In this document: positions 6,639 to 54,382 of the stretch, piece by piece
Layout of the letters: every line of letters starts with the position of its first letter
Position numbering within the stretch: the first letter of the stretch is position 1
From: Candidatus Babeliales bacterium
GTDB taxonomy: Bacteria; Babelota; Babeliae; Babelales; JABDEC01
Reading direction: 5' to 3'
Assembly: GCA_031292305.1 (NCBI GenBank)
Contig: JARLHJ010000012.1
Span: forward strand, 1 to 64,000
DNA: 64,000 nt
Position numbers and translations under genes: made by a program
Notes under the pieces: generated by a model
The model's database searches: none
What the model was told of the DNA's origin: nothing
What the model saw: only the letters and a program-made list of their open reading frames with translations

Positions 6639-6667
6639 ACTTAAACTATGACCCTAGGAAGTAATTC

Positions 6668-8029
6668 ATGATTCCACAGAAGATATTTAATCAAATAGAA
6701 AACAACATAGAGACTATAATTAATAAGGATTCAGCTCTAGGAATCGAGCTTTGGAATGAATTGCTAAAAATTCACCCTGCAGATTTAGCTACCTTTTTTA
6801 CTAACATAGATAAAGAAGATTTTAAAGCATTGTTCGTTGGCTTGCCAGAAAAAATCAAGGCATCAACTTTTGACTATCTTTCAGATTCAATGAAGGCATT
6901 TACATTATCATTTACTAAAGAAGATGAAAAAGGTCTGCTATTAGAAAGTATATCAATCGAAGAACTAACAGATCTTTTTGATTACTTATCAGATGAAGAA
7001 ATAAAAGATTATTTTGAGCTTTTACATAAAAAAGATAGAGAAAAAGTACTTTCTTTAATGAAATTTAGCCCTGAATCAGCAGGGGGGATCATGGATCCTT
7101 ACGTGGTAACATTTAGGGAATATTTTACAATTGAACAAAGTATTAATATTTTACAACGTGTGAGACCAAGTAAAGATTTACATCAGCAAATTTATGTAAC
7201 AGATAAAGATAATAGATTAGTAGGCCATATACAGTTAGAAGATCTATTACTTAAAAGCCCTAAAACAAAGTTAGCAAATATTTTAAGGCAAAATGAACTA
7301 GTGGTATCGGTAGATGAAGATCAAGAAGAGATAGCAAAACAAATGATGCACTATAGCTTGGTGACTGTGCCTGTAGTAGGTGATAATGAGATTTTCTTGG
7401 GAGTTATTCCAAGTACAACGTTAGTGGATATTATTGAACAGGAAGCTACAGAAGATATTTATAAAATTTCTGGTATGGCTCCAATTAAAAAATCTTATTT
7501 TGAAATTCCATTTTTTAAACATTTTTTTGATCGTGGTTATATTTTGGCAATCTTATTATTAATTGAGTCATTTTCCAGTACTATATTAAAAGCATATGAA
7601 CATTCTTTAGTAGATTTTTCCTTTTTAGGCTTATTTATACCTATGCTTGTAAGTACAGGCGGTAACACAAGTAGCCAGACTTCAGCTTTGGCAATTCAAG
7701 GTTTAGCTTTAGGTGAAATTAACTATTCTAATATTCGCAGATTCTTTAAACGTGAATTTTTTATGGCATTTTGCTTAGCAACAATGTTGGGTTTAATTGC
7801 CTTTTTAAGAGTCTATTTTACCCATGGTAAAATTTTGGCAAGTGTAGTTGTGGCTATGTCTTTATCGGTGATTGTAATGCTTTCTGTTGTGCTTGGCAGC
7901 TGTATTCCATTATTATTAAAAAAGATTAATATTGACCCTGCGTTTGCAGCGGGTCCATTCTTGGCAACTATAGTAGATATTTTAGGAATTTTAATTTATT
8001 GTTATATAAGTAAGCTTATTTTATCATAA
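6668..8029 (+). CDS. mgtE: Magnesium transporter MgtE
   Basis: MgtE N-domain, tandem CBS region and C-terminal 5-TM domain (…VSTGGNTSSQTSALAIQGLALGE…PFLATIVDILGIL…). Length 453 aa. Confidence 0.85.
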   Translation: MIPQKIFNQIENNIETIINKDSALGIELWNELLKIHPADLATFFTNIDKEDFKALFVGLPEKIKASTFDYLSDSMKAFTLSFTKEDEKGLLLESISIEELTDLFDYLSDEEIKDYFELLHKKDREKVLSLMKFSPESAGGIMDPYVVTFREYFTIEQSINILQRVRPSKDLHQQIYVTDKDNRLVGHIQLEDLLLKSPKTKLANILRQNELVVSVDEDQEEIAKQMMHYSLVTVPVVGDNEIFLGVIPSTTLVDIIEQEATEDIYKISGMAPIKKSYFEIPFFKHFFDRGYILAILLLIESFSSTILKAYEHSLVDFSFLGLFIPMLVSTGGNTSSQTSALAIQGLALGEINYSNIRRFFKREFFMAFCLATMLGLIAFLRVYFTHGKILASVVVAMSLSVIVMLSVVLGSCIPLLLKKINIDPAFAAGPFLATIVDILGILIYCYISKLILS

Positions 8030-8053
8030 ATTTACATATATTTAATATTTTAC

Positions 8054-8080
8054 TTGACAGGAATGCGCTCTGTGTATAAT
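8054..8080 (+). promoter_or_regulatory. Putative sigma70 promoter of the tRNA operon (TTGACA-15 bp-TATAAT)
   Basis: Consensus -35 TTGACA and consensus -10 TATAAT about 65 nt upstream of tRNA-Lys. The spacer is short, so confidence is moderate. Confidence 0.35.
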
Positions 8081-8147
8081 ATTTTTCTATACTAACTCTT
8101 TTATTGAAAATCTTTTCAATTATTTAGATTGTTTTTAGAAATTTTAT

Positions 8148-8223
8148 GAGCCGCTAGCTCAGTCGGTAGAGCAACAGCCTTTTAAGCTGTGGGTCGTTGG
8201 TTCGATTCCAACGCGGCTCACCA
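8148..8223 (+). tRNA. tRNA-Lys (anticodon UUU)
   Basis: Cloverleaf drawn by hand. Acceptor stem GAGCCGC/GCGGCTC. D-arm GCTC-AGTCGGTA-GAGC. Anticodon stem ACAGC/GCTGT with loop CTTTTAA (anticodon TTT). T-arm GTTGG-TTCGATT-CCAAC. Encoded CCA. Confidence 0.9.
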
Positions 8224-8295
8224 TATTTAGCTTAAAGTCTATCTATGGTGTACTAAATCAGGTTGGTTTAGTCAAATTTTAACTTGAAATAATAT

Positions 8296-8373
8296 GTCCC
8301 TATCGTCTAGCCCGGTCCAGGACGCCACCCTTTCACGGTGAAAACATGGGTTCGAATCCCATTAGGGACGCCA
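8296..8373 (+). tRNA. tRNA-Glu (anticodon UUC)
   Basis: Acceptor GTCCCTA/TAGGGAC. Anticodon loop CTTTCAC (TTC). T-arm GGGTTCGAATCCC. Encoded CCA. Strongly resembles the canonical bacterial tRNA-Glu. Confidence 0.85.
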
Positions 8374-8414
8374 TTTTTATTCTTTTTAGAGTAATATTGG
8401 CTCTATAAATTTAA

Positions 8415-8447
8415 AAAGATCAGTTTAAAAGCTGATCTTTTTTTTTT
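8415..8447 (+). terminator. Rho-independent terminator of the tRNA operon
   Basis: Hairpin AAAGATCAG-tttaaaag-CTGATCTTT followed by T10. Confidence 0.7.
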
Positions 8448-8502
8448 GATTATTTTTAGGTAATAGGAAGTTTAATGATCCAATACAAAAAATTAGGAAA
8501 AA

Positions 8503-9372
8503 ATGGTTAAAAAATATAATTTTTATATAATTCTGTTATTAATTTCATTAAATTTATTATGCAGCGAAAGTTTAAAAATGGAAACAAAACCTATTGGACT
8601 TAGATACCTAGATTTTCTAAAAGTTTTTGCAATACCTAATCAAGATAATTTTTCTAAAGAAATTGAATCTTTATTCTCTCCAGATATTAAAAAAGTAGTT
8701 AATTCTAATTTAGTATGCAAAGATCGTAATCAATTATTAGAACAGATGAATGATGTTAAAAAAACTTATGGTTTAGGGTATATGGAATTGTTAGAATTAT
8801 TTATAGATAAGAATACTAATTCTAATATCTTAAGCTGGGAAATTAAATATAAAGATAATACAGTTGAAACTGTTATAACTATTTTAAAATATAATGAACT
8901 AGATTTAATAACAGAAATAAATGAAGTCTTTGGAGAAAAAGAAGTTTATAAGTTTCCAGAAGTTAAAAATCATTTAATTGAAGTAGCGCAAAATTATTTA
9001 AAATTTGTTAATGATGTTGGAAGTGCAAAATCTGTAAAATCAGATGATACTCGAGTAAAAACATTATTTGCTGAAAACTTAACTAAGATTGATAACCGTA
9101 CAATTTTGTTTGCAAATGATCGTAATTTATTATTGTCTCAAATGAAAGGCTTTGAAAAAGAATACACCCCTAATTCAAACGTAGCTGATTGGACTGTAAA
9201 CTTAAATACAGCATTAATAATTCCTTCAACAGAGACTAATTCTGTAACAGTACAATTTGAATGGCAGCACATAAATGTTGGTAGAGCTACAACTACTGCA
9301 ATATTACAATGTAATAGCAATAATCAAATAGAAAAAGTTATAGATGTTTGGGCAAAAATACATTCTGTTTAA
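8503..9372 (+). CDS. Hypothetical secreted protein (289 aa)
   Basis: N-terminal signal peptide. No recognisable motif. Confidence 0.45.
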   Translation: MVKKYNFYIILLLISLNLLCSESLKMETKPIGLRYLDFLKVFAIPNQDNFSKEIESLFSPDIKKVVNSNLVCKDRNQLLEQMNDVKKTYGLGYMELLELFIDKNTNSNILSWEIKYKDNTVETVITILKYNELDLITEINEVFGEKEVYKFPEVKNHLIEVAQNYLKFVNDVGSAKSVKSDDTRVKTLFAENLTKIDNRTILFANDRNLLLSQMKGFEKEYTPNSNVADWTVNLNTALIIPSTETNSVTVQFEWQHINVGRATTTAILQCNSNNQIEKVIDVWAKIHSV

Positions 9373-9766
9373 ATGATAAACTATTGAAGTTTGGATGCTT
9401 AATCTGGCTATAAGAATTGCATTCATAATGGTAAATCTCGAATGTTTAAATAATTTTTTGTGATTTATAATTTTATCATAATGACTTTTCTTAGCTTTTA
9501 CTTCCTTTGATTTCTTAGACTTTGTAGCTGATTTCAAACGTTTATCTACTTCTACTAACATTACAAATAAAGCTGTAACCTTTTTTTTCGATTATCAAAA
9601 GACAAAACGACATTTGCCTATTTAAACATTGTATTTCTTTTAAATGATATTCAATATCATTCGTTAAATTCTAATAAAATGAATGAAGCTTTTATAAAAA
9701 TATAATTAGTTTACAAAAATGCGAAGTATGCCCTTCGTAGCTATCCACAAAGTGGATGCGTAACAA

Positions 9767-9916
9767 ATGTTTAATCAATATACAGCATTAGCTGAAAAGC
9801 GCGTTGATGCTAAACAGATGAATGATAAAACTGCTAAAGAATTTTCATTTTTTCATAGAATGGTTAAAAATGCTTTAGAAAAAGAAGCATTTGGAAGTAT
9901 CCAAAGCAAATTATAA
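9767..9916 (+). CDS. Candidate small protein (49 aa), hypothetical
   Basis: ATG…TAA ORF MFNQYTALAEKRVDAKQMNDKTAKEFSFFHRMVKNALEKEAFGSIQSKL. It is followed at 9941..9975 by a strong hairpin terminator. No RBS is obvious, so confidence is low. Confidence 0.25.
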   Translation: MFNQYTALAEKRVDAKQMNDKTAKEFSFFHRMVKNALEKEAFGSIQSKL

Positions 9917-9940
9917 TATCAAAGAAGACCAAATAATCAA

Positions 9941-9975
9941 AGAAGGCCAGCGTAAAAAGCTGGCCTTCTTCTTTC
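9941..9975 (+). terminator. Rho-independent terminator (GAAGGCCAGC…GCTGGCCTTC + T-run)
   Basis: Perfect 12-bp stem followed by CTTTC. It belongs to the GCCAG…CTGGC hairpin family seen at several gene ends in this window. Confidence 0.55.
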
Positions 9976-10025
9976 AAAAACATAAAAAATGTTCGTTTAA
10001 ATAATAATTTTTAATTAAAAGAATG

Positions 10026-10604
10026 TTATTTGGCCTTACAAGTTTCTTGTGGATTGCGCCATATTAATATTGAATTAGAAGAATTTTTTGATAATAAGAT
10101 ATCTTTTATATACACAAACCCTGATTTTTTATAACAGTTAATGCTTCTAATATTATTAATATTGGGATCTACCATACAAGCATTGAAATTATTATCGACG
10201 AATTTGATTAAAAATTGTTTTAGAATTTCAGTCCCATATCCCTTATTTAAAAATTCAGTATTGCCAATATAAAAATCTATTGCAGCAAGTTTGGGAATTT
10301 CTTTAATTTCATTTTCAATTAGAGAAAGTTCGTAGCCTTCACGTTTAAATTCTCTAGCGTTATATAATTGAATATATCCTATAGGTTCATTTTTTATAAA
10401 AATTATAAAGCAATCAATATTTTCGGTTTTATCAATACGGGGTCCTAATTTTTTTTCAATGCCATGCAAAGTAATTTGTTTGGATGTAGAATTTCCAAAC
10501 CATTCTTTTACATGTTCAGAATTTAACCATTTAATTAAATATGAAAAATGTGATCGTCTTAATTTAACAAATTCAATTTTATCATTTTCAAAAAATGTAT
10601 TCAT
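10026..10604 (-). CDS. GNAT-family N-acetyltransferase (192 aa)
   Basis: Acetyl-CoA binding-like segment …IGNTEFLNKGYGTEILKQFL… with GNAT fold topology. Small cytoplasmic protein. Confidence 0.6.
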   Translation of the reverse strand: MNTFFENDKIEFVKLRRSHFSYLIKWLNSEHVKEWFGNSTSKQITLHGIEKKLGPRIDKTENIDCFIIFIKNEPIGYIQLYNAREFKREGYELSLIENEIKEIPKLAAIDFYIGNTEFLNKGYGTEILKQFLIKFVDNNFNACMVDPNINNIRSINCYKKSGFVYIKDILLSKNSSNSILIWRNPQETCKAK

Positions 10605-10708
10605 CTAAGTCTACTTTCTATTCAATTTAAGTGTGTTAATTATAGTTTAATTTTAACTTTTTAGTAATACCTGTTAAAATATTTAAAAATAAAAATCTAG
10701 GAGAATGA

Positions 10709-11200
10709 ATGAATAAATTCAATAAAATATTAGCCTTTTTCCAAACTTTAGTAATTTTTGTAAGTCCAATTGCTGGGATAACTTCGATTTGTGGCTTTGT
10801 TTACGGTTTTTATTGGGTTCGCAACCATAAAATACAACAAAGAATGGATCATAGAAGTGAAGAAGCAAGAAAAGCCTTAGATCATTTATTTGAAGTTAAA
10901 TTGTTATTAAAAGAAGCTTTTGAAGGTGATGCTTGTGATCGAAAAGAAGTATTAGATAATAGATTGCCAATTCTTTTAAATAATTTACTTAACACATTAT
11001 TTTTCATAAAGCATTCACAGGCTATTGAGGACTTAAAGAAAATGCTTAATGATTTATTAGAAGCTGTTGTAAGTTATGAAGATATTAAAAATTCTGAAAT
11101 TGTTTGTAGCAGGGTTAAATCGATAATTTACCAAAATAATCATAATAGATTAGATGATCTAAAGATTGTTTTATTAGAAATTTATGAAATGAAACGATAA
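10709..11200 (+). CDS. Hypothetical membrane-anchored protein (163 aa)
   Basis: One N-terminal TM helix and a helical C-terminal part. The RBS GGAGAATGAATG is present. Confidence 0.4.
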   Translation: MNKFNKILAFFQTLVIFVSPIAGITSICGFVYGFYWVRNHKIQQRMDHRSEEARKALDHLFEVKLLLKEAFEGDACDRKEVLDNRLPILLNNLLNTLFFIKHSQAIEDLKKMLNDLLEAVVSYEDIKNSEIVCSRVKSIIYQNNHNRLDDLKIVLLEIYEMKR

Positions 11201-11462
11201 TTAATTTTAAATTTTTTCCTATAGCTTTTTACATAAGATCTTTTTTTATAAACTGACCTCCTTTTTGCATAAAATCACCTAAATTACAGTAATATTTAAT
11301 ATTTTCGAGTTTTCACATGGAAAGAATGCGTCAACTAATGATTCTAATAGCTTGTTTTTTATGGCTTGGATTTGTTACTATTAGAATGAGTAAGTAGATT
11401 GAACCTTAAAAAGTCAATCTTCTTAGGTGTGAAAGCAGTTTAACGTAAAAAAGGAGGTAATT

Positions 11463-19765: not shown

Positions 19766-20593
19766 ATGAAAAAATTTAAATTGGCTATGTTAGTCTCATT
19801 ATTGGCAGTTTCCGGTAATTTAATGACAGATGATACAGTTGCAACTTCTGATTCATCATCTGCAACTCCAGCTGCAAGTACTGATAGTTCATCAAGTTCA
19901 TCAACAACTACACCTGCAACAAGTTCTGATGTTGCAGTGGCTATTTCAACAACAACTACAAGTCCAGATGCGCCAGCGGCTACGCCTGTAGACACACCTG
20001 TAGTAGCTTCAGCTTCGGTAGTAGATAGTTCAGCTATAGCTACTCTAGATGCATCTACAACTCCAGAGACAATAGCACAAGACAATAAAGATTTACAAGC
20101 TTCTGGTGATGCAGTAAAAGCTTCAGAAACAGAAGCAGTTGCTACTGATGCAGAAGTATCAAAATCAGAAACAGATGTAAAAGATGCTAAAGTTGATCAA
20201 GCTCAAGCAACTACTCCAGATGAAAAAGTTGCAGCTACAACAGTAGTTGAATTAGCTAAGCAAGAATTAGATGCAACTAAAGAAGTTGCGAAATCTGTTA
20301 AAAACTTAACTTCAACAAAAAAAGATCTTAACACTAAAATTAAAACTTTAGTTAAGGCAAAAGTTGATTTAAAAGCAGCAGTTAATTCAAAAGAGAAAGA
20401 AAAAAAGGCTGCTGAAATTAAAAAAGCTCAACTAGCGTTAGATCAAATAAAAGCTTCAATTAAGCAAGCTCAAGTACAATATGATGCTCTTAAAGCTAAA
20501 TCAAAAGTAATTAAAAATAATCTAGTGGCTGCAAAAACTAAGTTTAAAGCACGTAAGAAAAATAATGTAGGCAGCAGACCAGTTAAGAAGTAA
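19766..20593 (+). CDS. Secreted low-complexity protein: Ser/Thr/Ala/Asp-rich N-terminal half, Lys/Ala-rich coiled-coil C-terminal half (275 aa)
   Basis: RBS AAAGGAG. Signal peptide MKKFKLAMLVSLLAVSGNLMT. Composition was read directly. The antisense ORF 19744..20085 is an artefact of the repeats. Confidence 0.5.
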   Translation: MKKFKLAMLVSLLAVSGNLMTDDTVATSDSSSATPAASTDSSSSSSTTTPATSSDVAVAISTTTTSPDAPAATPVDTPVVASASVVDSSAIATLDASTTPETIAQDNKDLQASGDAVKASETEAVATDAEVSKSETDVKDAKVDQAQATTPDEKVAATTVVELAKQELDATKEVAKSVKNLTSTKKDLNTKIKTLVKAKVDLKAAVNSKEKEKKAAEIKKAQLALDQIKASIKQAQVQYDALKAKSKVIKNNLVAAKTKFKARKKNNVGSRPVKK

Positions 20594-20707: not shown

Positions 20708-21328
20708 GTGCTTAAAACTAATGTTTTTATTTTAATTATCTTAATTACAATACCAAGTTGCTTTGCAAAGGATTCTAAAATGGAAGATGCGAAAAAACCA
20801 ATAATTCAAATTATATTAGGAAGTACAAGGCAGGGTAGAACTTCAGAGAAAGTATATAATGCATTAAAAGGCTTAATTGATAAAAGAACAGACGTAGTTT
20901 TAGAAAAGATAGATTTAAAAGATTTTAACTTACCATTCTTAGATGATGCTGTTTCTCCATCTAGTCGCAAAGAAATCACAGACCCTATAATTCAAAAATG
21001 GTCAGATAAAATAAAACAAGCAGATGCTTATATTATTCTAGTGCCTGAGTATAATTCTGGTTACCCGGGCGTTTTAAAAAATGCTTTAGATCTTTTATAT
21101 AAAGAATGGAACAATAAGCCGGTTGCATTTATTGGTTTTTCAGGCGGACCTGATGGTGCAGCAAATGCTATTGCGCAATTGCGACAAGTAGCGCGTGCAT
21201 TTAAAATGACACCTGTTGAGGCTGAAATTAAAATACCAACATCATGGAAAGCATTTGATGAACAGGGAAATTTGATTAATAATGTTGAAGCTGATTTTAA
21301 TAAGATTATTGACCAATTAAAGAGATAA
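20708..21328 (+). CDS. NADPH-dependent FMN reductase-family flavoprotein
   Basis: …IIQIILGSTRQGRTSEKV… and …LVPEYNSGYPGVLKNALDLL… fit the flavodoxin-like FMN-reductase fold. The track ORF starts at a GTG and carries a hydrophobic leader. The true start may be the internal ATG (MEDAKKP…). Confidence 0.6.
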   Translation: MLKTNVFILIILITIPSCFAKDSKMEDAKKPIIQIILGSTRQGRTSEKVYNALKGLIDKRTDVVLEKIDLKDFNLPFLDDAVSPSSRKEITDPIIQKWSDKIKQADAYIILVPEYNSGYPGVLKNALDLLYKEWNNKPVAFIGFSGGPDGAANAIAQLRQVARAFKMTPVEAEIKIPTSWKAFDEQGNLINNVEADFNKIIDQLKR

Positions 21329-21886: not shown

Positions 21887-23131
21887 ATGTCATATAATGA
21901 TCCCAGAAACAAAACAGATAAAAAAAGTGGATACAAGCCTAAATCTAATGATGCTAGATCATCAGGTAGACCATCAAGAGGAAATTCAGGTTCACGACCT
22001 GGCAATTCTGGTAGATCAGCACGACCTATTCAAACATTTGACCCATCAGCAGTTATTAAAAAAGTAGAAGAACAAGTAATAGCGCCAGTTTATGTACCTA
22101 AACATAAATTTGCAGACTTTGCTATAGAAGAACAACTTAAAAAAAATATTATAGATCGTGGTTATATTAACCCTACCCCTATTCAAGATGAAGCAATTCC
22201 TCTTTTGTTAGAAGGTAATGATATAATTGCTACTGCCAACACTGGTACAGGTAAAACAGCAGCATTCTTGATTCCTTTAGTTAATAATCTATTAACTAAA
22301 AAGATCTACAAAGTGCTTATTATTACCCCTACAAGAGAATTAGCAGCACAAATTCAAGATGAATTATCGATGTTTATGAATAAAACAGGCTTTAATTCAG
22401 TATTATGCATTGGTGGTTTAAGCTTAGGTCCCCAAATTCAGCAGTTAAAGCGAAATCCTGAATTTATAATAGGTACACCAGGTAGATTAAAAGATTTAGA
22501 AGAACAAAGATTTCTTAACTTTAACAGTTTTGATGCCATAGTATTAGATGAAGTAGATACAATGCTTGATATGGGCTTTATTAGAGATATTAAATATATT
22601 ATTTCTAAATTGCCTTCAAAGCGCCATTCATTATTCTTCTCTGCTACAATTGATGCTAGTTTAAAAGAAGTTATGAACAGCTTTTTACGCAAGCCTATTT
22701 CTGTAAGTGTAAAAACAAGGCAAACTGCTGAAAATGTTAACCAAGAGATAATAAAAGTTGGTGACAAAAATAAGTTGGAAATGTTACATGACCTGTTAAT
22801 TAAACCAGAATTTAAAAAAGTAATTATATTTTCGCGTACTAAACGCGCTACTGACAGATTATCTAAAGTTTTAAAAGAACGTGGTTTTGAAGTTGCTTCA
22901 ATTCATGGTGATAAAACTCAGGCGCAAAGAAAAAAAGCTTTAGCATTCTTTAAAGATGATAAAGTAAAAATTCTTTTAGCGACCGACGTTGTGGCCCGTG
23001 GTATTGATATTGACGATGTTTCACATGTTATCAACTTTGATTTACCTGCGACACATGAAGATTATATACACAGAATTGGTAGAACTGGCCGTGCTAATAA
23101 AATCGGACAGGCTATTACTTTTATTGATTAA
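21887..23131 (+). CDS. DEAD-box ATP-dependent RNA helicase with N-terminal Arg/Ser/Gly-rich extension
   Basis: Motifs seen: Q-motif region, TGTGKTAAF (Walker A), DEVD (DEAD variant), SAT, and HRIGRTGR (motif VI). Confidence 0.9.
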   Translation: MSYNDPRNKTDKKSGYKPKSNDARSSGRPSRGNSGSRPGNSGRSARPIQTFDPSAVIKKVEEQVIAPVYVPKHKFADFAIEEQLKKNIIDRGYINPTPIQDEAIPLLLEGNDIIATANTGTGKTAAFLIPLVNNLLTKKIYKVLIITPTRELAAQIQDELSMFMNKTGFNSVLCIGGLSLGPQIQQLKRNPEFIIGTPGRLKDLEEQRFLNFNSFDAIVLDEVDTMLDMGFIRDIKYIISKLPSKRHSLFFSATIDASLKEVMNSFLRKPISVSVKTRQTAENVNQEIIKVGDKNKLEMLHDLLIKPEFKKVIIFSRTKRATDRLSKVLKERGFEVASIHGDKTQAQRKKALAFFKDDKVKILLATDVVARGIDIDDVSHVINFDLPATHEDYIHRIGRTGRANKIGQAITFID

Positions 23132-24281: not shown

Positions 24282-24770
24282 ATGAAAAGTTTAATGCATC
24301 ACTCAAAAATAAGTTTACCTGAAAAAGACAGAATTGAGCTTATAAATATTTTAAATAAATCATTAGCTTCAACAGCTGATTTATACGCGCAATTAAAGCA
24401 GGCTCATTGGAATGTAAAAGGAAGAGAATTTATTGAATTACATAAGTTATTTGATGAAATTGCAGAATTAGTAGAAGAGCAAGTAGATATTATAGCAGAA
24501 CGTATCACTAGTTTAGGTGGTACTGCTTTAGGTACAATTCAACAAGCTACAACTAATACAGAGCTAAGATTATATCCAGTTGATATTTTTAAAGCAGAAG
24601 ACCACATAGAACATTTAACGCATAATATTGCAATTTTAGGCGAGCTTACTCGTACTAATATTAAACGTTCTGAAGATTTAGGCGATATGGGTACTAACGA
24701 TTTATATATAGATCTAGTAAGATTGTTAGACAAGAGCTTATGGTTTATTGAGGCTCATGTTCAAAAGTAA
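24282..24770 (+). CDS. dps: Dps (DNA-binding ferritin-like protein)
   Basis: 162 aa. …LYAQLKQAHWNVKGREFIELHKLFDEIAELVEEQVDIIAERITSLGG… is the ferritin-like di-iron fold signature of Dps. RBS AAAGGAGAA. Confidence 0.9.
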   Translation: MKSLMHHSKISLPEKDRIELINILNKSLASTADLYAQLKQAHWNVKGREFIELHKLFDEIAELVEEQVDIIAERITSLGGTALGTIQQATTNTELRLYPVDIFKAEDHIEHLTHNIAILGELTRTNIKRSEDLGDMGTNDLYIDLVRLLDKSLWFIEAHVQK

Positions 24771-25550: not shown

Positions 25551-25898
25551 ATGAATTCTACTACGCCAAGGCTACGAAGAACAGGAAAATTAATAATTTT
25601 AATTTTCGCATTAATTGCGTTTAATACAAATATTGAAGCTAATAGAGGCTATGCAAGCGGTAATTTCAACCGTGGATATAGTAATAGAAATAATAGAAAT
25701 CAGCGTTGGTCAAATAACCCTTACGGATGGGGAAATAGAAACCGTTGGAACTCAAACTATTGGAACAATAATTATAGACCATATCCTATTTTTAATACAT
25801 GGCCATATGATGAATATTCTTATGTCTATGATGATTATTATGATGATTGTTATTACTACCCACAAAGCTGTCAGTTTGGCTTCTTTTGGGGGTATTGA
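25551..25898 (+). CDS. Small secreted Asn/Arg/Trp/Tyr-rich low-complexity protein (115 aa)
   Basis: Signal peptide, then NRGY/NRN/WN repeats (…NRGYSNRNNRNQRWSNNPYGWGNRNRWNSNYWNNNYRPY…) and a YDDYYDDCYYY tail. Confidence 0.45.
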   Translation: MNSTTPRLRRTGKLIILIFALIAFNTNIEANRGYASGNFNRGYSNRNNRNQRWSNNPYGWGNRNRWNSNYWNNNYRPYPIFNTWPYDEYSYVYDDYYDDCYYYPQSCQFGFFWGY

Positions 25899-26481: not shown

Positions 26482-26619
26482 ATTCATTGCTTGCTGAAAC
26501 CTTTAGGGGTATTTATGCCTTAAATAAGGCAAATTCATTTATTGGAAACTATTGCAATTAGAAACTTTCTTGATTTATACTATTAATAAAGTGAAGTTTA
26601 TTCAAAAAAGGAGGCTCAA

Positions 26620-27681
26620 ATGAAAAAGTTTTTAATATTAATGCTAGTTTTAGCATTAGGTTCAACAGTTAATTTAGATTTAATTGCTAGAGGCGGCGGT
26701 GGCGGTGGTCATGGCGGCGGTGGTCGCGGTGGCGGTGGTATGCGTGGAGGCGGTGGTATGCGTGGTGGCGGTATGCGCGGTGGCGCTAGAGGAGGTGCAC
26801 GTGGCGGCGCAGCTCGTGGTAGAGGTGCTGCAGGTCGTGGAGCTGCAAATCGTGGTGGAGCAAATCGTACAAGAAATGCTAATGCTAACCATAATAGAAA
26901 TGCGAATGCCAATCGTAACAGAAACGCAAATAGAAATCGTAATGGCAACAGAAACAGAAATGGTAATAGAAATAGAAATGGCAATAGAGGTCGTGGTGGT
27001 CGTGGCAACTGGAATCATGGTGGCAATTGGAACCGTGGCGGAAACTGGGGCGGCTGGGGTTATGGCGGCTTAGGCTTAGGATTAGGCTTATTAGGCGGTG
27101 GTCTATTAGGTTACGGTCTATTAGGCGGTTTTGGTCCATACGGTGGCTACGGTTATGGTGGCGATTCAACAACATATGTTGAAGGCGATACTACTTATGT
27201 AGATAGTGGCTATGTAGATAGTGACTATGTTGATAATGGATATTCAGACAATAGTAATAATTATACAATTGTTTCTGATGATAATTCGGGCTCTGCAAAT
27301 GGTGCTTCTGCTGAAAATTCAGAAATGGAAGCAGCAAAGCAAAAAATATTAGCAGATCCAATTAAAAGAGAATTTACTCAAACCTTAGATAATCTAAGTA
27401 AAGAAAATCCAGCAGCTTATGATGCATTCCAAAATAAGCTTAAAGATGATTCTGCATTTAGAGATAAGCTTGAAAGACAGCTAAAAACAAATAAGGGAAT
27501 TAAGAAAGTTACTGCAAGCTTAAAGCGTGCAGATTACCAAGAGTCATTAATAAATGCAGGTAAAGCAGATTCAATATTAAACTCGGGTATTTTAGATGAT
27601 TCTGAAAATATTCAAGCAGTTAAGTTTCCATCAAATGAAGAAACTGTAATAATTGTGCCTCAAGGTACAGTAGCTGGTTAA
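26620..27681 (+). CDS. Secreted Gly/Arg (RGG-type) and Asn/Arg-repeat low-complexity protein (353 aa)
   Basis: RBS AAAGGAGG. Signal peptide. Then GGGGRGGGGMRGGGGMRGG…, (NRNRNG)n repeats, GNWNHGGNWNRGGNW, GYG repeats, and a C-terminal roughly 130-aa non-repetitive region. The ORFs listed on the other frames and strand here are repeat artefacts. Confidence 0.55.
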   Translation: MKKFLILMLVLALGSTVNLDLIARGGGGGGHGGGGRGGGGMRGGGGMRGGGMRGGARGGARGGAARGRGAAGRGAANRGGANRTRNANANHNRNANANRNRNANRNRNGNRNRNGNRNRNGNRGRGGRGNWNHGGNWNRGGNWGGWGYGGLGLGLGLLGGGLLGYGLLGGFGPYGGYGYGGDSTTYVEGDTTYVDSGYVDSDYVDNGYSDNSNNYTIVSDDNSGSANGASAENSEMEAAKQKILADPIKREFTQTLDNLSKENPAAYDAFQNKLKDDSAFRDKLERQLKTNKGIKKVTASLKRADYQESLINAGKADSILNSGILDDSENIQAVKFPSNEETVIIVPQGTVAG

Positions 27682-27763
27682 ATAAAAATTAGTTCTCCTG
27701 GTGTATAAACCAGGAGAACTAAAGTAAATGTGTATAACTGTATATTTTAAAAAGGAGAATGAA

Positions 27764-28219: not shown

Positions 28220-28906
28220 ATGAATGTTTTAATATTAAGTATTGTTTTGCTATTAAGTTTCAATATCTTTTCTGGTTTAGATTTTAAGTATCCATATACA
28301 GTGCCAACATTGCCGTATGAATATAAGTCATTAGAACCCTATATAGATGAACAAACTATGAAATTGCATCATGATGCGCATCACAAAACCTATGTTGATA
28401 ATTTAAATGCAGTTTTGGTTGATAACAAAAAATTGCAAGCAAAAGACTTAGAGTGGTTATTAAGAAACTTAAATACAATAGAAGACACTCAAACACAAAC
28501 GACAATAAAAAATAATGGTGGTGGTCATTGGAACCATTCATTTTTTTGGAAAATTATGGCTCCTGATTGTCAAAAACTTTCAAATAAAAAATTAATGAAA
28601 GAGATTAAGAAACAATTTGGGTCATTTGATAAATTTAAAGATCAATTTAATGCAGCAGCTAAAAAAGTATTTGGTAGCGGTTGGGCTTGGTTATGTGTTG
28701 ATCAAAATAAAAAATTGGTAATTATTACTACACCAAATCAAGAAAGCCCGATATCACAAGGTTTAGAGCCAATACTTGGTCTTGATGTCTGGGAGCATGC
28801 ATATTATTTAAAATACCAAAATAAGCGAATTGATTATATTAGTTCATTTTGGCATGTGATTAATTGGCGACAAGTTGAAATGAATTATAGTTTTGCAATT
28901 AAGTAA
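28220..28906 (+). CDS. Fe/Mn-family superoxide dismutase with N-terminal signal-peptide-like extension
   Basis: …LPYEYKSLEPYIDEQTMKLHHDAHHKTYVDNLN… and …DVWEHAYYLKYQNKRIDYI… are the Fe/Mn-SOD metal-ligand motifs. About 20 hydrophobic residues (MNVLILSIVLLLSFNIFSG) precede the canonical start of the fold. Confidence 0.9.
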   Translation: MNVLILSIVLLLSFNIFSGLDFKYPYTVPTLPYEYKSLEPYIDEQTMKLHHDAHHKTYVDNLNAVLVDNKKLQAKDLEWLLRNLNTIEDTQTQTTIKNNGGGHWNHSFFWKIMAPDCQKLSNKKLMKEIKKQFGSFDKFKDQFNAAAKKVFGSGWAWLCVDQNKKLVIITTPNQESPISQGLEPILGLDVWEHAYYLKYQNKRIDYISSFWHVINWRQVEMNYSFAIK

Positions 28907-33430: not shown

Positions 33431-33976
33431 TTATTTTTTAGTAGAGAATAATTTAATCATTTCTCTATTAAACGCTGGAATATCTTCAGGTTTTCGAGAC
33501 GTTACTAAATTATCATCGACAACCACTTCTTCATCTATCCAATCGGCACCAGCATTTTTTAAATCTAATTCTAGAGATGGCCATGAAGTTAATTTTTTGC
33601 CTTTAACAGCTTGCGCATTTATAAGAGTCCATGGACCGTGACAAATTGCTGCAATAGGTTTTTCATTTATAACAAATTCTTTTATAAACTTAATGGCATC
33701 GGGAATAATTCGTAATTTATCTGGATTCATTACGCCTCCAGGTAAAACTAAGGCATCATATTTATTGGCATTTGCTAAACTCAATTCAATATCAACTTTT
33801 AATTTTTTAGACCAGTTATCATTATTCCAACTTTGAACTTTAGATTTTTCAGGTGAAATTATTTCAACAATTGCACCTTCATTTTCTAATGCTTTTTTGG
33901 GTTTTTCTAACTCAGAAAGCTCAAAGCCATTAGCTACCAATATTGCTACTTTTAAGCCTAATAATAAATTTGTCAT
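33431..33976 (-). CDS. DJ-1/PfpI-family protein (glutamine amidotransferase-like class 1)
   Basis: …KVAILVANGFELSELEKPKKALENEGAIVEIISPE…YDALVLPGGVMNPDKL…KPIAAICHGPWTLINA… includes the nucleophile-elbow Cys motif AICHG. Confidence 0.85.
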   Translation of the reverse strand: MTNLLLGLKVAILVANGFELSELEKPKKALENEGAIVEIISPEKSKVQSWNNDNWSKKLKVDIELSLANANKYDALVLPGGVMNPDKLRIIPDAIKFIKEFVINEKPIAAICHGPWTLINAQAVKGKKLTSWPSLELDLKNAGADWIDEEVVVDDNLVTSRKPEDIPAFNREMIKLFSTKK

Positions 33977-44348: not shown

Positions 44349-45311
44349 TTATAGTTTAAAATTTTCTTTTTCTAAAGTTATTTTTTCCCACATTGTTACG
44401 GTTCCATCTTTATAAGCTGCAGCTAAAAATTGTTCATCAGATGTATGTGATATCGAGTTAAGGGTAATTGAAAGATCATTAAATAATTTTTTTATAATAA
44501 AATTATATTCATAATAAACTAGAGTATTAAATGTTGGTTCATTTGAAATATAACATTCTGAATGTTGTGTTTGAGGTTTTGCCCAAAGTAAAAAATCTAC
44601 TTTATTAACAGTAGATTTAAAGATTGTTAATTTTTTAGTTTTTAATTCACATATTCTAATTGTGTTATCTATTGCAATAGTACCTAAAAATAAAGAATCA
44701 TCTGACCAGGTGATTGACCTAATAGGTAAAGGCATTTTAACTTCTTTAATTTTTTTTTCTGATGAAATATCCCAAATTATTATCTTATTATTATAAGAAG
44801 ATGCTAATTGTGAATTATCAGGTGACCATGCAATAGCATAAGTAAATCCTTCGAAATCCTTTAAAAATTTATGTTTATCCAGTTGCAGATTAATTTTATC
44901 AAGTTTTAAAATTAATATAGAATTAATGCCTCCAATAGCTAATCTATTATCAGAAGACCATTTTAAATATTTAATAACATACTTGGAGTTATTTTCAAAA
45001 ATTAAATCCAAATCAGTTATTATTTCTCCTTTTGTGTCAGATATTTTAATTACCCCATCTTGCCCCCCTGAAGCTAGTAGATCATTATTTGACCAGTCTA
45101 CACAATTAACTTGTGATTCATGCTTCAATGTTGAAATTTTTCTATATGTATATGCTGGGTGTTTATAATTTCGTTCTTTTAATTGTTTATAAATATCATC
45201 TCGCTCTTTTACGGCAACATTTAATTGTTTAAAAGCATCTACAGTAGAAATATCAGCGCTTTTAAGCGTAATACACAAAGTTAATAGAAGAAGAATAATT
45301 ATTTGTTTCAT
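44349..45311 (-). CDS. Secreted WD40-repeat protein (320 aa)
   Basis: Signal peptide. The repeat …NCVDWSNNDLLASGGQDGVIKISD… and others ending in WD/WE-like dipeptides. Confidence 0.6.
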   Translation of the reverse strand: MKQIIILLLLTLCITLKSADISTVDAFKQLNVAVKERDDIYKQLKERNYKHPAYTYRKISTLKHESQVNCVDWSNNDLLASGGQDGVIKISDTKGEIITDLDLIFENNSKYVIKYLKWSSDNRLAIGGINSILILKLDKINLQLDKHKFLKDFEGFTYAIAWSPDNSQLASSYNNKIIIWDISSEKKIKEVKMPLPIRSITWSDDSLFLGTIAIDNTIRICELKTKKLTIFKSTVNKVDFLLWAKPQTQHSECYISNEPTFNTLVYYEYNFIIKKLFNDLSITLNSISHTSDEQFLAAAYKDGTVTMWEKITLEKENFKL

Positions 45312-51649: not shown

Positions 51650-54382
51650 ATGGAAATAAAAAAGATAATATTTATTGTTTTGGTTGCATTTATTACCAGC
51701 GAAAACCTATTTGCTGCTGGCTTTAATTTAAATATAGTTAATAAAAGTACAAAAACGATTTGGGTACAATCGCAAAAAGATACACGTGTAGGGTATAATT
51801 ATATTCCAGGTAGTTTAATACCTGTTAACTCTAACATGACTCAAACTTTGTCTTCTGAAGTATCTAGTGTTCCTTATTATTTTTTCTATTCCAATGTAAG
51901 TAATGCTCCAAGTATGGCACAAATTACATTTGACGCATCAGGATTTACTGCAAATTCTAATCCCCTAGGATTTCCAATAAAAACTAACTATTTATATCAA
52001 TTTGATAATACTCAATTGACGCAAAAGCCAAGTGATTTTACAATTTATGTAACTGACCCTACTTGTAATTATAATGCGTCAGCGCCTGCTTGGGATTACA
52101 GTGTTGATAGTAATGGAAATGCTTCAAATTTTAAATGTGTTGCTCAGGAAAATTCAATAACTGCAGGTCATTTTAATTTTCAAAATAATACTAACCAAGA
52201 TGCCATTTCTATTACAGGATTTAATCCTGGTTTTGGGTCATGTACACCTGGTTTACCAACCGGAATAGCGCATGGCAATAGTGCTAGTTTTGATGCTTGG
52301 TGCACAATTAATTCTGCGGGCTCTATTCAATACACACCTATAGGTGGTAGTGCACAAACTATAAGTTTAAAAAATATAAATACAACAGATACATATTTTC
52401 AAATTACATTTAACCAAAGTAGTGTTACTTTAAATTCGGGTACAACTAGTGGAAGTTACCCTAATGCAATTGGTACATTTACATATGTATCACCGACTGC
52501 TACTGCATCAGTAACAACAACTTTGCCTGCAGTAACAACTCCCACACCGACACCAGTTGCAACCACACCTTCAATAAATTCAATATCAGTAGGGCATTTT
52601 AATTTTACAAATAATACCAAACAAGATGTAATTTCTATCAATGCATTTAATACAGGTGGGTCCTGCCCAGGACTTGGTTTACCAACAGGCATACAACATG
52701 GCAATAGTGCAGATTTAGATATTTGGTGTGCAATTAATGCCAATGGTTCAATTCAATACACACCTACTGGTGGAAGTGTACAAACAATAAGTTTAAAAAA
52801 TATAAATACAACAGATACATATTTCCAAGTTACATTTAGTCAGACTGGTGTAACTTTAAATTCAGGAAAAAGCAGTGGAAGTTACCCGAATGCAATTGGT
52901 ACATTTACGTATATATCACCAACTCCAACGGTTACCCCGGCGGTTACGGCACCTGTAACACCAGCGGTTACACCGACACCAACTGCAACTCCAATAGTAA
53001 CTCCAACTGCGATACCAGCAGCTACGCCTGTAGCACCAACACCTGCAGTAATACCAACAGTAACACCGACAGTAGCTCCAGCTTCGGTGCCAGCAGTTTC
53101 GCCTGCAGCACCAACACCGACACCAACCGTAACACAAACAGTAACTCCAGTTACGACACCAGCAGTTTCGCCTGCAGTAATAGCAATAACACAAGCAGCT
53201 GCACCTGCAGTAACAACTTCGTCTAGTACAACAATTAAGGCACCAGTGGATGTGCCTACGCAATCAATAGTATCAACTACAACTTCTTCACAAGTAGCAG
53301 ATTCAGAGCCGATTATATTTTTAACGCCAACATTGACTGAAGAACCAGTTGTAAACACACCTTCAAATAATTCCACATCTGTAGGACATTTTAATTTTAC
53401 AAATAATACCAAGCAAGATGTAATTTCTATTAATGCATTTAACACAGGTGGGTCATGCCCAGGACTTGGTTTGCCAACAGGCATACAACATGGCAATAGT
53501 GCAGATTTAGATGTATGGTGTAAAATTAATGCAAATGGCTTTATTCAATACACACTTACATCTGCAAGTGTACAAACAATAAGTTTAAAGAATATAAATT
53601 CAATAGATACATATTTCCAAGTCATATTTAACCAGACTGGTGCAACTTTAAGTTCGGGTACAAGTGCAGGAAGTTATCCTAATGCAATTGGTACATTTAC
53701 GTATGTGTCACCAAACGCAGCTGCTAATTCATCAAATGTTGTACCAATACCAACAATAAATACAACTTTGATTCCAGCAGTAACAGCAACAGCAGCTTCG
53801 GGAATTCTAACACCAACTGTTAGTTCTGCAACTCTATCGCCAGTAATTACAACGTCACCAACCACCGTTTCTAATGTTTCATCTGCATTACCAACGCTTC
53901 TATCAGAGTCTACAACTGCAATTCCTGTAACTTCTAATGATAGTGCTACCTCAGTATTGGGAGTGTCAACACCTATAGTTCCTTCAGTAGCTTCAGTACC
54001 ATTAGCATCAACTTTAGTACCTGCGCCGTTAACGCCAGCTTCCACACCTAAGGCTGCCTTAACTTCTGTAACTCCTATTAAAAAAGCTACTGTGGTTGCA
54101 AAGCCTAGTGTTGTATCAAAAAAACCTATTGTACCCGCTAAGCCTGTTGCAAAAAAACCACTTGTGTCAAAGAAACCAGTACCTGTTTTAAAAAAGCCTG
54201 TAGTAGCAAAAAAACCAATTGTAGTCGCAAGACCTGTAATTAAAGTAACTAATAGTGATGGTTGTAAATTAAGTGGTCAGTCTTGTAAGTGTTCAAATAC
54301 TGGATTATCTGGAACATGTAGTATAGGTGATGCTAAACCTGGTTTATATTGCCATTGTGACGAAGAAGAAGACGATTACTGA
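51650..54382 (+). CDS. Large secreted protein (910 aa) with a conserved N-terminal domain, three copies of a roughly 110-aa GHFNF…TFTY domain, P/T/A/V-rich linkers, a Lys/Pro-rich tail and a Cys-rich C-terminus
   Basis: RBS GAAGGGGAG. Signal peptide. Repeat domains at about 52166-52497, 52592-52923 and 53384-53715. Linkers such as …PTVTPAVTAPVTPAVTPTPTATPIVTP…. Tail …KKPIVPAKPVAKKPLVSKKPVPVLKKPVVAKKPIVVARP… then …CKLSGQSCKCSNTGLSGTCSIGDAKPGLYCHCDEEEDDY. The antisense and off-frame ORFs within it are artefacts. Confidence 0.6.
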   Translation: MEIKKIIFIVLVAFITSENLFAAGFNLNIVNKSTKTIWVQSQKDTRVGYNYIPGSLIPVNSNMTQTLSSEVSSVPYYFFYSNVSNAPSMAQITFDASGFTANSNPLGFPIKTNYLYQFDNTQLTQKPSDFTIYVTDPTCNYNASAPAWDYSVDSNGNASNFKCVAQENSITAGHFNFQNNTNQDAISITGFNPGFGSCTPGLPTGIAHGNSASFDAWCTINSAGSIQYTPIGGSAQTISLKNINTTDTYFQITFNQSSVTLNSGTTSGSYPNAIGTFTYVSPTATASVTTTLPAVTTPTPTPVATTPSINSISVGHFNFTNNTKQDVISINAFNTGGSCPGLGLPTGIQHGNSADLDIWCAINANGSIQYTPTGGSVQTISLKNINTTDTYFQVTFSQTGVTLNSGKSSGSYPNAIGTFTYISPTPTVTPAVTAPVTPAVTPTPTATPIVTPTAIPAATPVAPTPAVIPTVTPTVAPASVPAVSPAAPTPTPTVTQTVTPVTTPAVSPAVIAITQAAAPAVTTSSSTTIKAPVDVPTQSIVSTTTSSQVADSEPIIFLTPTLTEEPVVNTPSNNSTSVGHFNFTNNTKQDVISINAFNTGGSCPGLGLPTGIQHGNSADLDVWCKINANGFIQYTLTSASVQTISLKNINSIDTYFQVIFNQTGATLSSGTSAGSYPNAIGTFTYVSPNAAANSSNVVPIPTINTTLIPAVTATAASGILTPTVSSATLSPVITTSPTTVSNVSSALPTLLSESTTAIPVTSNDSATSVLGVSTPIVPSVASVPLASTLVPAPLTPASTPKAALTSVTPIKKATVVAKPSVVSKKPIVPAKPVAKKPLVSKKPVPVLKKPVVAKKPIVVARPVIKVTNSDGCKLSGQSCKCSNTGLSGTCSIGDAKPGLYCHCDEEEDDY

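Follow-up and report, generated by a model that had tools for sequence, protein, structure and literature searches.

Arg/Gly-rich (RGG/RG) regions are familiar from eukaryotic RNA-binding proteins, and an Arg–aromatic 'sticker' grammar is known for phase-separating proteins. In the envelope of diderm bacteria, TonB-type spacers place segregated acidic and basic low-complexity blocks (Glu-Pro or Lys-Pro) before a small C-terminal domain. Material-like tracts are also known, such as the GGX and poly-Ala repeats of silk-like proteins and the LG repeats of the magnetosome proteins Mms6 and MamG, which are followed by an acidic tail. An engineered RGG disordered region has been displayed on E. coli via Sec and the curli system, with about 90% cell aggregation (PMC12595443). 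Here we describe a gene at positions 26620..27681 (+) of the first 64,000 nucleotides of contig JARLHJ010000012.1 (assembly GCA_031292305.1, Candidatus Babeliales bacterium), a stretch referred to below as the window. The gene encodes 353 amino acids plus a stop codon, and its product, hereafter the tri-block protein, carries a polycationic, an uncharged and a polyanionic block in succession behind a signal-peptide-like N-terminus.

Babeliales are intracellular parasites of protists, for which signal-peptide ORFans and vesicles have been proposed as effector carriers; in the cultured member Chromulinavorax destructans, 44% of the coding sequences have signal peptides, with ORFans over-represented among them (PMC6561590). 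An ORFan of this type is therefore ordinary in the group, and it is the composition that stands out. Genes for TamB, an LpxB-like glycosyltransferase and a PD40 propeller lie in the window; the organism is accordingly diderm, probably with lipopolysaccharide (LPS). No description of a natural exported bacterial protein of RGG type was found in the searchable literature. Low-complexity ORFans with a signal peptide are commonplace in the phylum, and RGGG behind a signal peptide also occurs in DUF6515-like proteins. What is new here is a small unannotated family that conserves charge blocks across different chemistries: selection appears to maintain the order of the blocks, their charges and the helical tail, and not the RGG motif. 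We favour, with a probability of roughly 0.4, the view that the tri-block protein is a Sec-exported, non-enzymatic, multivalent protein of the envelope, a matrix or the host interface.

The tri-block gene and its relatives

The features of the gene are as follows.

26552..26581, + strand: promoter-like site of sigma-70 type (TTGCAA, 18-nt spacer, TATACT), from a consensus scan, with hexamers kept in relatives
26590..26614, + strand: 5' leader (AGTGAAGTTTATTCAAAAAAGGAGG) including the Shine-Dalgarno (SD) sequence AAGGAGG (26608-26614), 5 nt before the ATG; read from the sequence, conserved
26620..26688, + strand: signal-peptide-like N-terminus, residues 1-23 (MKK / FLILMLVLAL / GSTVNLDLIA), with n/h/c organisation by inspection and L-x-A before RGG conserved
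26689..27060, + strand: polycationic block, residues 24-147, net charge +26, isoelectric point (pI) 12, made of the next three sub-blocks
26689-26859, + strand: RG sub-block, residues 24-80, an R/G tract with 33 Gly in 56 residues
26860-26997, + strand: NR sub-block, residues 81-126, an N/R tract
26998-27060, + strand: GNW sub-block, residues 127-147, three GNW units
27061..27159, + strand: uncharged G/L/Y block, residues 148-180 (YGGLGLGLGLLGGGLLGYGLLGGFGPYGGYGYG), near-identical in the ortholog described below (GGLGFGLGLLGFGLLGF)
27160..27324, + strand: polyanionic Tyr/Asp/Ser block, residues 181-235, net charge -12, pI 4.05, YV(D/E) repeats with a 15-nt period
27325..27582, + strand: helical C-terminal core, residues 236-321, 64% identical to the ortholog, dN/dS 0.31
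27583..27678, + strand: lineage-specific C-terminal tail, residues 322-353, without a counterpart in the ortholog
27689..27722, + strand: strong 3' hairpin immediately behind the stop codon, 14 bp, -23.7 kcal/mol, z = -8.9

The extreme low complexity that the first-pass annotation ascribed to the mature part is evident from the RG, NR, GNW, G/L/Y and acidic tracts. Against the other long open reading frames (ORFs) of the window, in which G, R and N make up 4.9%, 2.9% and 6.5%, the tri-block protein is enriched in Gly, Arg and Asn with binomial P values of 6e-29, 2e-14 and 2e-12. Its polycationic block contains neither an acidic residue nor a Lys. RGG occurs ten times in the protein, NR 13, NRN nine, GNW three, GYG four and Y[VS][DE] five times, and the tri-RGG pattern (RGG-X0-4-RGG-X0-4-RGG, found by regular expression) is present twice, in RGGGGMRGGGGMRGG and in RGGARGGARGG. 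The mature protein has a run of 158 residues without Asp or Glu (Bonferroni P = 1.5e-7) and one of 100 residues without Lys or Arg (Bonferroni P = 7e-6). These run-length statistics were used in place of the Das-Pappu kappa, whose value of 0.2-0.27 is kept low by the Gly and Asn that dilute the charges. The C-terminal domain of normal complexity, put earlier at about 130 residues, is present as a distinct region, but it measures 118 residues (236-353), and only residues 236-321 are conserved in the ortholog. The repeat DNA, likewise, had been called GC-rich; this is correct for the RG block (GC content 0.70) and the GNW block (0.62) but not for the NR block (0.36), in a genome of about 0.28. 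Since the RG block reaches 70% GC in such a genome, its Gly/Arg richness opposes the mutational bias. A recent horizontal origin of the GC-rich block was rejected on account of its native codon choice, the codons for Gly, Arg, Asn, Ala and Leu being chosen as in the rest of the window.

The search for the C-terminal domain in related genomes, which had been proposed as a check, remained empty in the databases but succeeded by synteny, when the contigs carrying the closest relatives of the adjacent 192-aa membrane protein were inspected. Two orthologs were found in this way, one in full length on a Logan contig of run SRR21358266 (L097) and one as an N-terminus on a Logan contig of run SRR21360224 (L100). 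The membrane protein of L097 is 71% identical to that of the window, and the gene order is the same, namely Dps, a small N/R-rich gene, the membrane protein, the position of the tri-block gene and DUF378, with PD40 and MFS genes further on. In L097 this position holds two genes, a 337-aa paralog directly upstream of a 311-aa ortholog. The ortholog consists of a signal peptide ending in VDLMA|RGGGGGGG, an RG block, (AKGRGRGTT)3, GRGNWNRNGWGRNNW, the G/L/Y block, DTIYEGDTYIDTGYSDDD and a C-terminus starting with ENAKQQVLADPVKKEFVETLDTLSKENPEAYDAFTNKLKDDSRFRNK, and it matches the tri-block protein with 51% identity over residues 174-321 (BLASTP E = 4e-45). Its (AKGRGRGTT)3 stands in the place of the NRN tract, which is therefore lineage-specific. 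L100 shows the same gene order, and the contig ends within the ortholog, after its N-terminus (..VDLFA|RGGGGGRGGGGGRGGGG..). The RG block is kept in both orthologs.

The paralog (L097 3059-4072) retains the layout with other residues. Its cationic block is built of Lys, Pro and Gly in KPGK repeats such as KPGKGKK (KPGKSKKPVKGKKPGKGAKPGKGKKPGK), its middle block of GYG, Ala10 and Ser7, and its acidic block of (GGGE)n and (TYEAP)4. Kinship of its C-terminus with that of the tri-block family shows at the profile level only (hhalign probability 74%, E = 2.8e-5). The net charges of the cationic, middle, anionic and C-terminal blocks are +26, 0, -12 and 0 in the tri-block protein, +27, 0, -14 and +2 in the L097 ortholog, and +26, 0, -12 and +4 in the paralog. 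The paralog thus amounts to a natural experiment, in which Arg-Gly and Asn-Arg are exchanged for Lys-Pro-Gly while +26/0/-12 is kept, and this points to selection on charge patterning. When the window is compared with L097, the C-terminal core has a dN/dS of 0.31 and the GNW, G/L and acidic part one of 0.42, as against 0.07 for Dps, 0.15 for the membrane protein and 0.21 for the 115-aa product of the small N/R-rich gene.

Neighbour-joining of the membrane protein groups the genomes of the window, L097 and L100 in one clade. In L098, the sister lineage, Dps, the membrane protein and DUF378 are present but both the small N/R-rich gene and the tri-block gene are missing, and neither of these two was found in five further contexts (L099, L101, L102/L103, L104/L105 and L106). 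As far as seen, the family would therefore be confined to one small clade of Babeliales. In the Dependentiae, to which Babeliales belong, a large part of the gene content consists of signal-peptide ORFans, and among these the present family is small, tractable and under clear purifying selection.

That the tri-block gene is a genuine protein-coding gene, expressed-looking and monocistronic, is shown by several features. Its frame is the only one free of stop codons over the coding sequence, and the synonymous-codon score of the low-complexity part is +0.43 in this frame and at most -0.15 in the other five; the frame also scores best overall. L097 and L100 have the -35 and -10 hexamers in the equivalent place (TTGCAA/TTGCTA ... 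TATACT, by intergenic alignment). A 25-nt leader, AGTGAAGT(T)TTATTCAAAAAAGGAGG, precedes the first gene after the membrane protein in all three genomes, at about 3033-3058 in L097 and 10681-10706 in L100. This leader is longer than an SD sequence alone requires. At the equivalent place behind the L097 gene there is a hairpin of -22.5 kcal/mol (z = -7.5) with two compensatory pair changes; the hairpin of the window lacks a U-tract on the + strand. The coding call with a strong SD, made already from the window alone, agrees with all of this. Run SRR23300980, assembled separately, gives a Logan contig that matches the window at 100% identity across 1,944 bp, all repeats included, which argues against collapse or expansion of the repeats by one assembler, although the reads may be shared with the metagenome-assembled genome. 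With the frame preserved in two orthologs, dN/dS of 0.31-0.42 and an identical separate assembly, the situations that the first-pass annotation had listed as fatal to its claim did not arise. One could suspect that the ORF crosses a low-complexity repeat by chance, or that it stems from faulty assembly, because several alternative frames are likewise open across the repeat and database searches gave no homolog, but this notion is already refuted, as far as sequence evidence reaches, by the frame kept in orthologs with dN/dS below 0.5, the conserved promoter, SD and hairpin, the native codon bias and the second assembly.

The tandem repeats themselves are imperfect, with 57-93% matches in Tandem Repeats Finder, and the longest perfect run is 15 nt, or 2.5 units. 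Contingency loci are recognised by a long perfect tandem repeat within the gene, and none is found here. Among the five 18-nt NR units, pS is 0.85 and pN 0.17, with synonymous sites saturated, which indicates that the N-x-N-R-N-R pattern is held at the protein level and that the array is old. The content and length of the array differ between lineages, by expansion, contraction and replacement over evolutionary time. The proneness to slipped-strand variation suggested earlier is thus weakly supported, by the difference in block content between lineages, whereas saturated synonymous sites and the lack of any perfect repeat above 15 nt speak against it. In a DUF6515 gene with similar Gly-coding repeats, the number of trinucleotide repeats varies among Erwinia amylovora strains (PMC12365104).

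Comparison with described proteins

The family is small and new, with no recognisable Pfam, NCBIfam or PDB relative. The tri-block protein has no match in Pfam or NCBIfam, not even at E <= 10. A database search with the whole protein is swamped by low complexity and yields five weak DUF6515-like matches (P0001-P0005), which were rejected as homologs since the similarity is lost with composition correction (BLASTP E = 0.41). For the C-terminus, a word-indexed search of a collection of 5.8 billion sequences gave no match, and an exhaustive HMMER search of 1.84 billion representatives gave a single one, P0006, a eukaryotic 12x tandem repeat whose weak repeat scores add up, and which is spurious. 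Neither the protein nor its profile gave a match in scans of genome, metagenome and viral contigs. A genome scan based on the superoxide dismutase (SOD) gave no taxonomic or syntenic signal (identity <= 56%, mixed phyla), and a metagenome scan based on PD40 gave relatives of 59-69% without synteny. The L097 ortholog, itself a called gene of a Logan contig, was also missed by the searches of large protein databases; these negatives are therefore unreliable and understate the spread of the family.

Structural comparison gave a similar result. AlphaFold2 (AF2) on the single sequence of residues 225-353 suggests four helices at a predicted local distance difference test (pLDDT) score of 50-57, with a low-confidence mean of 42. 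Sequence and profile searches of PDB returned insignificant matches only (PrgI, E ~0.3; GerD 4o8w, E = 0.17). The match to the Cpl-7 CW_7 lysozyme 5i8l (E = 0.0047) is the sum of three repeats, each non-significant alone, and was discarded. GerD (PF17898) has no match in the tri-block protein, and the C-terminus of the paralog matches it below threshold (E = 9e-4, 19.6 bits against a cut-off of 29.5).

The likeness to eukaryotic RNA-binding proteins is compositional, as judged from sequence. The tri-block protein shares with the RGG/RG regions of FUS, LAF-1, nucleolin and fibrillarin the dense RGG spacing, two occurrences of the tri-RGG pattern and the combination of Arg/Gly with Tyr/Trp tracts. 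It differs from these proteins in that it belongs to a bacterium, stands behind a signal peptide, has no RRM, KH or other RNA-binding domain and shows no detectable homology to them, and in that RGG is replaceable by KPGK at equal charge in the paralog. The eukaryote-like RGG box of the first-pass annotation accordingly finds no support in that form, as homology to RGG proteins, an RNA-binding domain and a cytoplasmic context are all lacking, the KPGKGKK of the paralog keeps +26, and NRN is confined to one lineage.

In the order of its modules the tri-block protein comes close to the DUF6515-like proteins (PF20125; P0001-P0005), which likewise carry a signal peptide, RGGG(M/F)RGGG, an N-rich NxNxN(R) tract, a Trp stretch, a hydrophobic segment of small residues and a C-terminal domain. 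These five matches are themselves below threshold for the DUF6515 hidden Markov model (14-24 bits against a cut-off of 24.9). The Cys-containing C-terminal domain of DUF6515 (WYxPxY..YVVV) is missing from the tri-block protein, and the acidic block and helical C-terminus of the latter are missing from DUF6515 proteins. Because the similarity is not significant after composition correction, the collinear modules are no evidence of homology.

Of the TonB-type spacers, the KPGK tract of the paralog is similar in kind, although in the tri-block protein the block order is reversed, no uncleaved transmembrane (TM) anchor is evident and TonB_C is absent. The (GL)n and GYG tracts, the Ala10 of the paralog and the sequence of an LG-repeat block and an acidic block recall silk, Mms6 and MamG, a comparison that is a lead only; unlike these, the tri-block protein has an added polycationic block, and neither homology nor a magnetosome or silk context is seen. 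The engineered CsgF-RGG display in E. coli (iDP2; PMC12595443) resembles it in sending an RGG disordered region via Sec out of the cytoplasm for multivalent aggregation, and it serves as a working model of the possible effects of such a block outside a cell. That system is a synthetic fusion on the curli machinery, whereas the tri-block protein has anionic and helical parts of its own.

Possible roles of the tri-block protein

The signal peptide predicted earlier is borne out, by inspection, through the n/h/c layout and an L-x-A conserved in four proteins. All four have a basic n-region and a hydrophobic core some 10 residues long, within the 7-15 expected of a substrate of Sec and signal peptidase I, and L(-3)-I-A(-1) in the tri-block protein agrees with the small or neutral residues expected at -3 and -1; Arg at +1 is atypical. 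L-x-A stands directly before the first Arg/Gly residues in the tri-block protein, the L097 ortholog (VDLMA|RGG), the L100 ortholog (VDLFA|RGG) and the paralog (LELVA|AGG). A lipobox is absent, the tri-block protein having no Cys at all, and no twin-arginine motif is present in the n-regions MKK, MNKLMKR, MKKLSVMKR and MRK. The Kyte-Doolittle maxima of 19-residue windows are 2.19 at the N-terminus and 1.54 in the G/L/Y block, and approximate Hessa sums are +1.7 kcal/mol for the N-terminal 19-mer and +2.4 kcal/mol for the G/L/Y block, so that, approximately, neither segment looks like a stable TM helix. No Pfam glycine-zipper family matches, and the ortholog breaks the GxxxG register with F in place of G. 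The favoured topology is that of a cleaved Sec signal and a probably soluble or peripherally bound exported protein.

In the mechanism that we propose, Sec takes the protein across the inner membrane and the signal peptide is probably cut after ..L-I-A23. The mature protein of 34 kDa would be a largely disordered tri-block polyampholyte with a small helical C-terminal domain. The polycation could hold anionic surfaces such as LPS and lipid phosphates or, if released, nucleic acids or polyphosphate. Pairing of Arg with Tyr/Trp and of positive with negative blocks might create intermolecular attraction of a coacervate- or matrix-like kind, and the helical C-terminus might serve specific docking or oligomerisation. 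The layout matches the sticker-and-charge-block grammar of phase-separating proteins, and the middle block is material-like both here (GYG/GL) and in the paralog (GYG, Ala10, Ser7). If self-association, or binding of polyanions of the envelope or the host, does take place outside the cytoplasm, the biology of RGG-type disorder extends to the bacterial exterior, and the family would be a test case for the conservation of a disordered protein without conservation of its sequence; if not, it is one more lineage-specific envelope ORFan.

Several points weigh against a role of this kind. In E. coli, Sec export is disfavoured by Arg at +1 and by a +26 segment that begins right behind the cleavage site, and under the positive-inside rule the polycation would lie in the cytoplasm. 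Disorder is called from composition only, single-sequence AF2 being uninformative at a pLDDT of 42. The family has been seen in three genomes only, and the conservation statistics come from one full-length ortholog pair.

An unlikely alternative is that the protein is a host-directed effector, which reaches the cytoplasm of the protist via outer-membrane vesicles or another route and whose Arg-rich block mimics RGG/poly-GR, a cell-penetrating or a nucleolar-targeting peptide, binding host RNA, ribosomes or nucleoli. Two tri-RGG patterns among ten RGG in total would fit such mimicry, as would the eukaryote-like WD40 proteins in the same window and the parasitism of protists by Babeliales, with signal-peptide ORFans and vesicles as proposed effector carriers (PMC6561590). 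However, the paralog keeps the charge and not RGG (KPGKGKK), the ortholog does not share the NRN block, and neither an RNA-binding domain nor homology to eukaryotic RGG proteins is found. A Sec signal alone leads only to the periplasm, and no secretion-system genes are adjacent.

Our favoured view of a multivalent envelope, matrix or host-interface protein can be carried further, to a natural extracytoplasmic condensate or coacervate scaffold. A self-complementary Arg/Gly polycation and Tyr/Asp polyanion would then phase-separate in the periplasm, on the surface or in the protist and build the parasite-host interface, where the RGG tract could engage host RNA. We regard this step as distinctly unlikely. 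If true, it would give the first natural exported bacterial protein of RGG type that phase-separates, and its conserved code would lie in the charge blocks instead of the sequence.

Of similarly low probability is an inner-membrane helical hairpin, in which the N-terminus and the G/L/Y block are two TM segments, the +26 loop is cytoplasmic and could hold nucleic acid or ribosomes at the membrane, and the periplasm receives the acidic block and the helical domain. This arrangement obeys the positive-inside rule, unlike the exported topology: the two hydrophobic peaks (2.19 and 1.54) flank the +26 loop, and a -12 segment follows the second. The segments are nevertheless poor TM candidates, as shown by the N-terminal core of about 10 residues and the approximate Hessa values of +1.7/+2.4 kcal/mol. 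The middle block of the paralog (GYG, Ala10, Ser7) is even less TM-like, and the L-x-A motif of cleavage type is conserved in four proteins.

It is very doubtful that the protein is the precursor of a membrane-active cationic peptide of antimicrobial or lytic type, whose Arg/Trp/Gly part and Gly-rich hydrophobic segment attack membranes of the host or of competitors and whose acidic block is a neutralising pro-region. The order of parts would suit this function, with a cationic part, the Trp-containing GNW, a G/L segment with GxxxG spacing and, behind it, an anionic block that carries about half as much charge. Eukaryotic cationic peptides have precursors of such a layout, and the neighbouring 115-aa protein shows the same succession of cationic, aromatic and anionic parts. 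On the other hand, no processing sites were found, nor toxin or immunity genes nearby; the charge is diluted by Gly/Asn and forms no amphipathic pattern, the ortholog does not share the GxxxG register, and the conserved helical C-terminal domain is left unexplained.

Very unlikely, too, is a periplasm-spanning tether or scaffold like TonB, TolA or GerD, in which the charge blocks are an extended spacer only and the C-terminal helices do the work. The organism is diderm, the KPGK tract of the paralog resembles the Lys-Pro spacer of TonB, and the C-terminus of the paralog gives the sub-threshold match to GerD mentioned above (PF17898, E = 9e-4, 19.6 against 29.5 bits). The tri-block protein itself, however, has no TonB_C, TolA or GerD match, the PDB profile search is not significant (GerD 4o8w, E = 0.17), and a cleaved signal peptide leaves no membrane anchor.

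Neighbouring genes and other features of the window

Two genes stand directly upstream of the tri-block gene.

25551..25898, + strand: the small N/R-rich gene (P4L22_01695), encoding a putatively exported 115-aa protein with an N/R/G/W/Y cationic and then a D/Y anionic part; orthologs at the same position in L097 and L100
25903..26481, + strand: multi-pass 'membrane-associated protein' of 192 aa, with 181 homologs and no Pfam family, used as the synteny anchor

The 115-aa protein has 25% aromatic residues, two Cys and the C-terminus GFFWGY; its homology to the tri-block protein was rejected (E = 1.6). The start of the 192-aa gene lies 5 nt after the stop codon of the 115-aa gene, and this tight pair recurs in L097 (1996-2909) and L100 (9629-10633), with 65% identity and a dN/dS of 0.21, and is absent wherever the tri-block gene is absent. 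Records of the 192-aa family from Aquicella, Pontibacter and Dependentiae are named only 'membrane-associated protein'. Beside a homolog of this protein, the Babeliales-like contig L104 encodes a collagen-like (G-T-T / G-S-T)n protein of 1,592 aa (6643-11421).

Downstream, the gene at 28220-28906 encodes an Fe/Mn SOD with a hydrophobic N-terminal extension (MNVLILSIVLLLSFNIFSG), which suggests an exported enzyme, and genes related to oxidative stress are found around it, for Dps (24282-24770), FMN reductase (20708-21328) and DJ-1/PfpI (33431-33976). A DEAD-box helicase (21887-23131) has an N-terminal tail of about 50 aa rich in R/G/S/P, so that a cytoplasmic Arg/Gly-rich disordered region is probably present in the same genome; its relative in L100 falls into the same 90% identity cluster. 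Further proteins with a signal peptide are a 910-aa ORFan (51650-54382), which has no Pfam or NCBIfam match, a locally raised GC content of 0.37-0.40 and near-repeats at about 52456-53496, and the product of 19766-20593, whose signal peptide leads into a Ser/Thr/Ala-rich low-complexity tract, with a coiled-coil-like region that has weak SMC matches only. A eukaryote-type WD40 beta-propeller protein is encoded at 44349-45311, and similar WD40 genes are present in L100 and L102.

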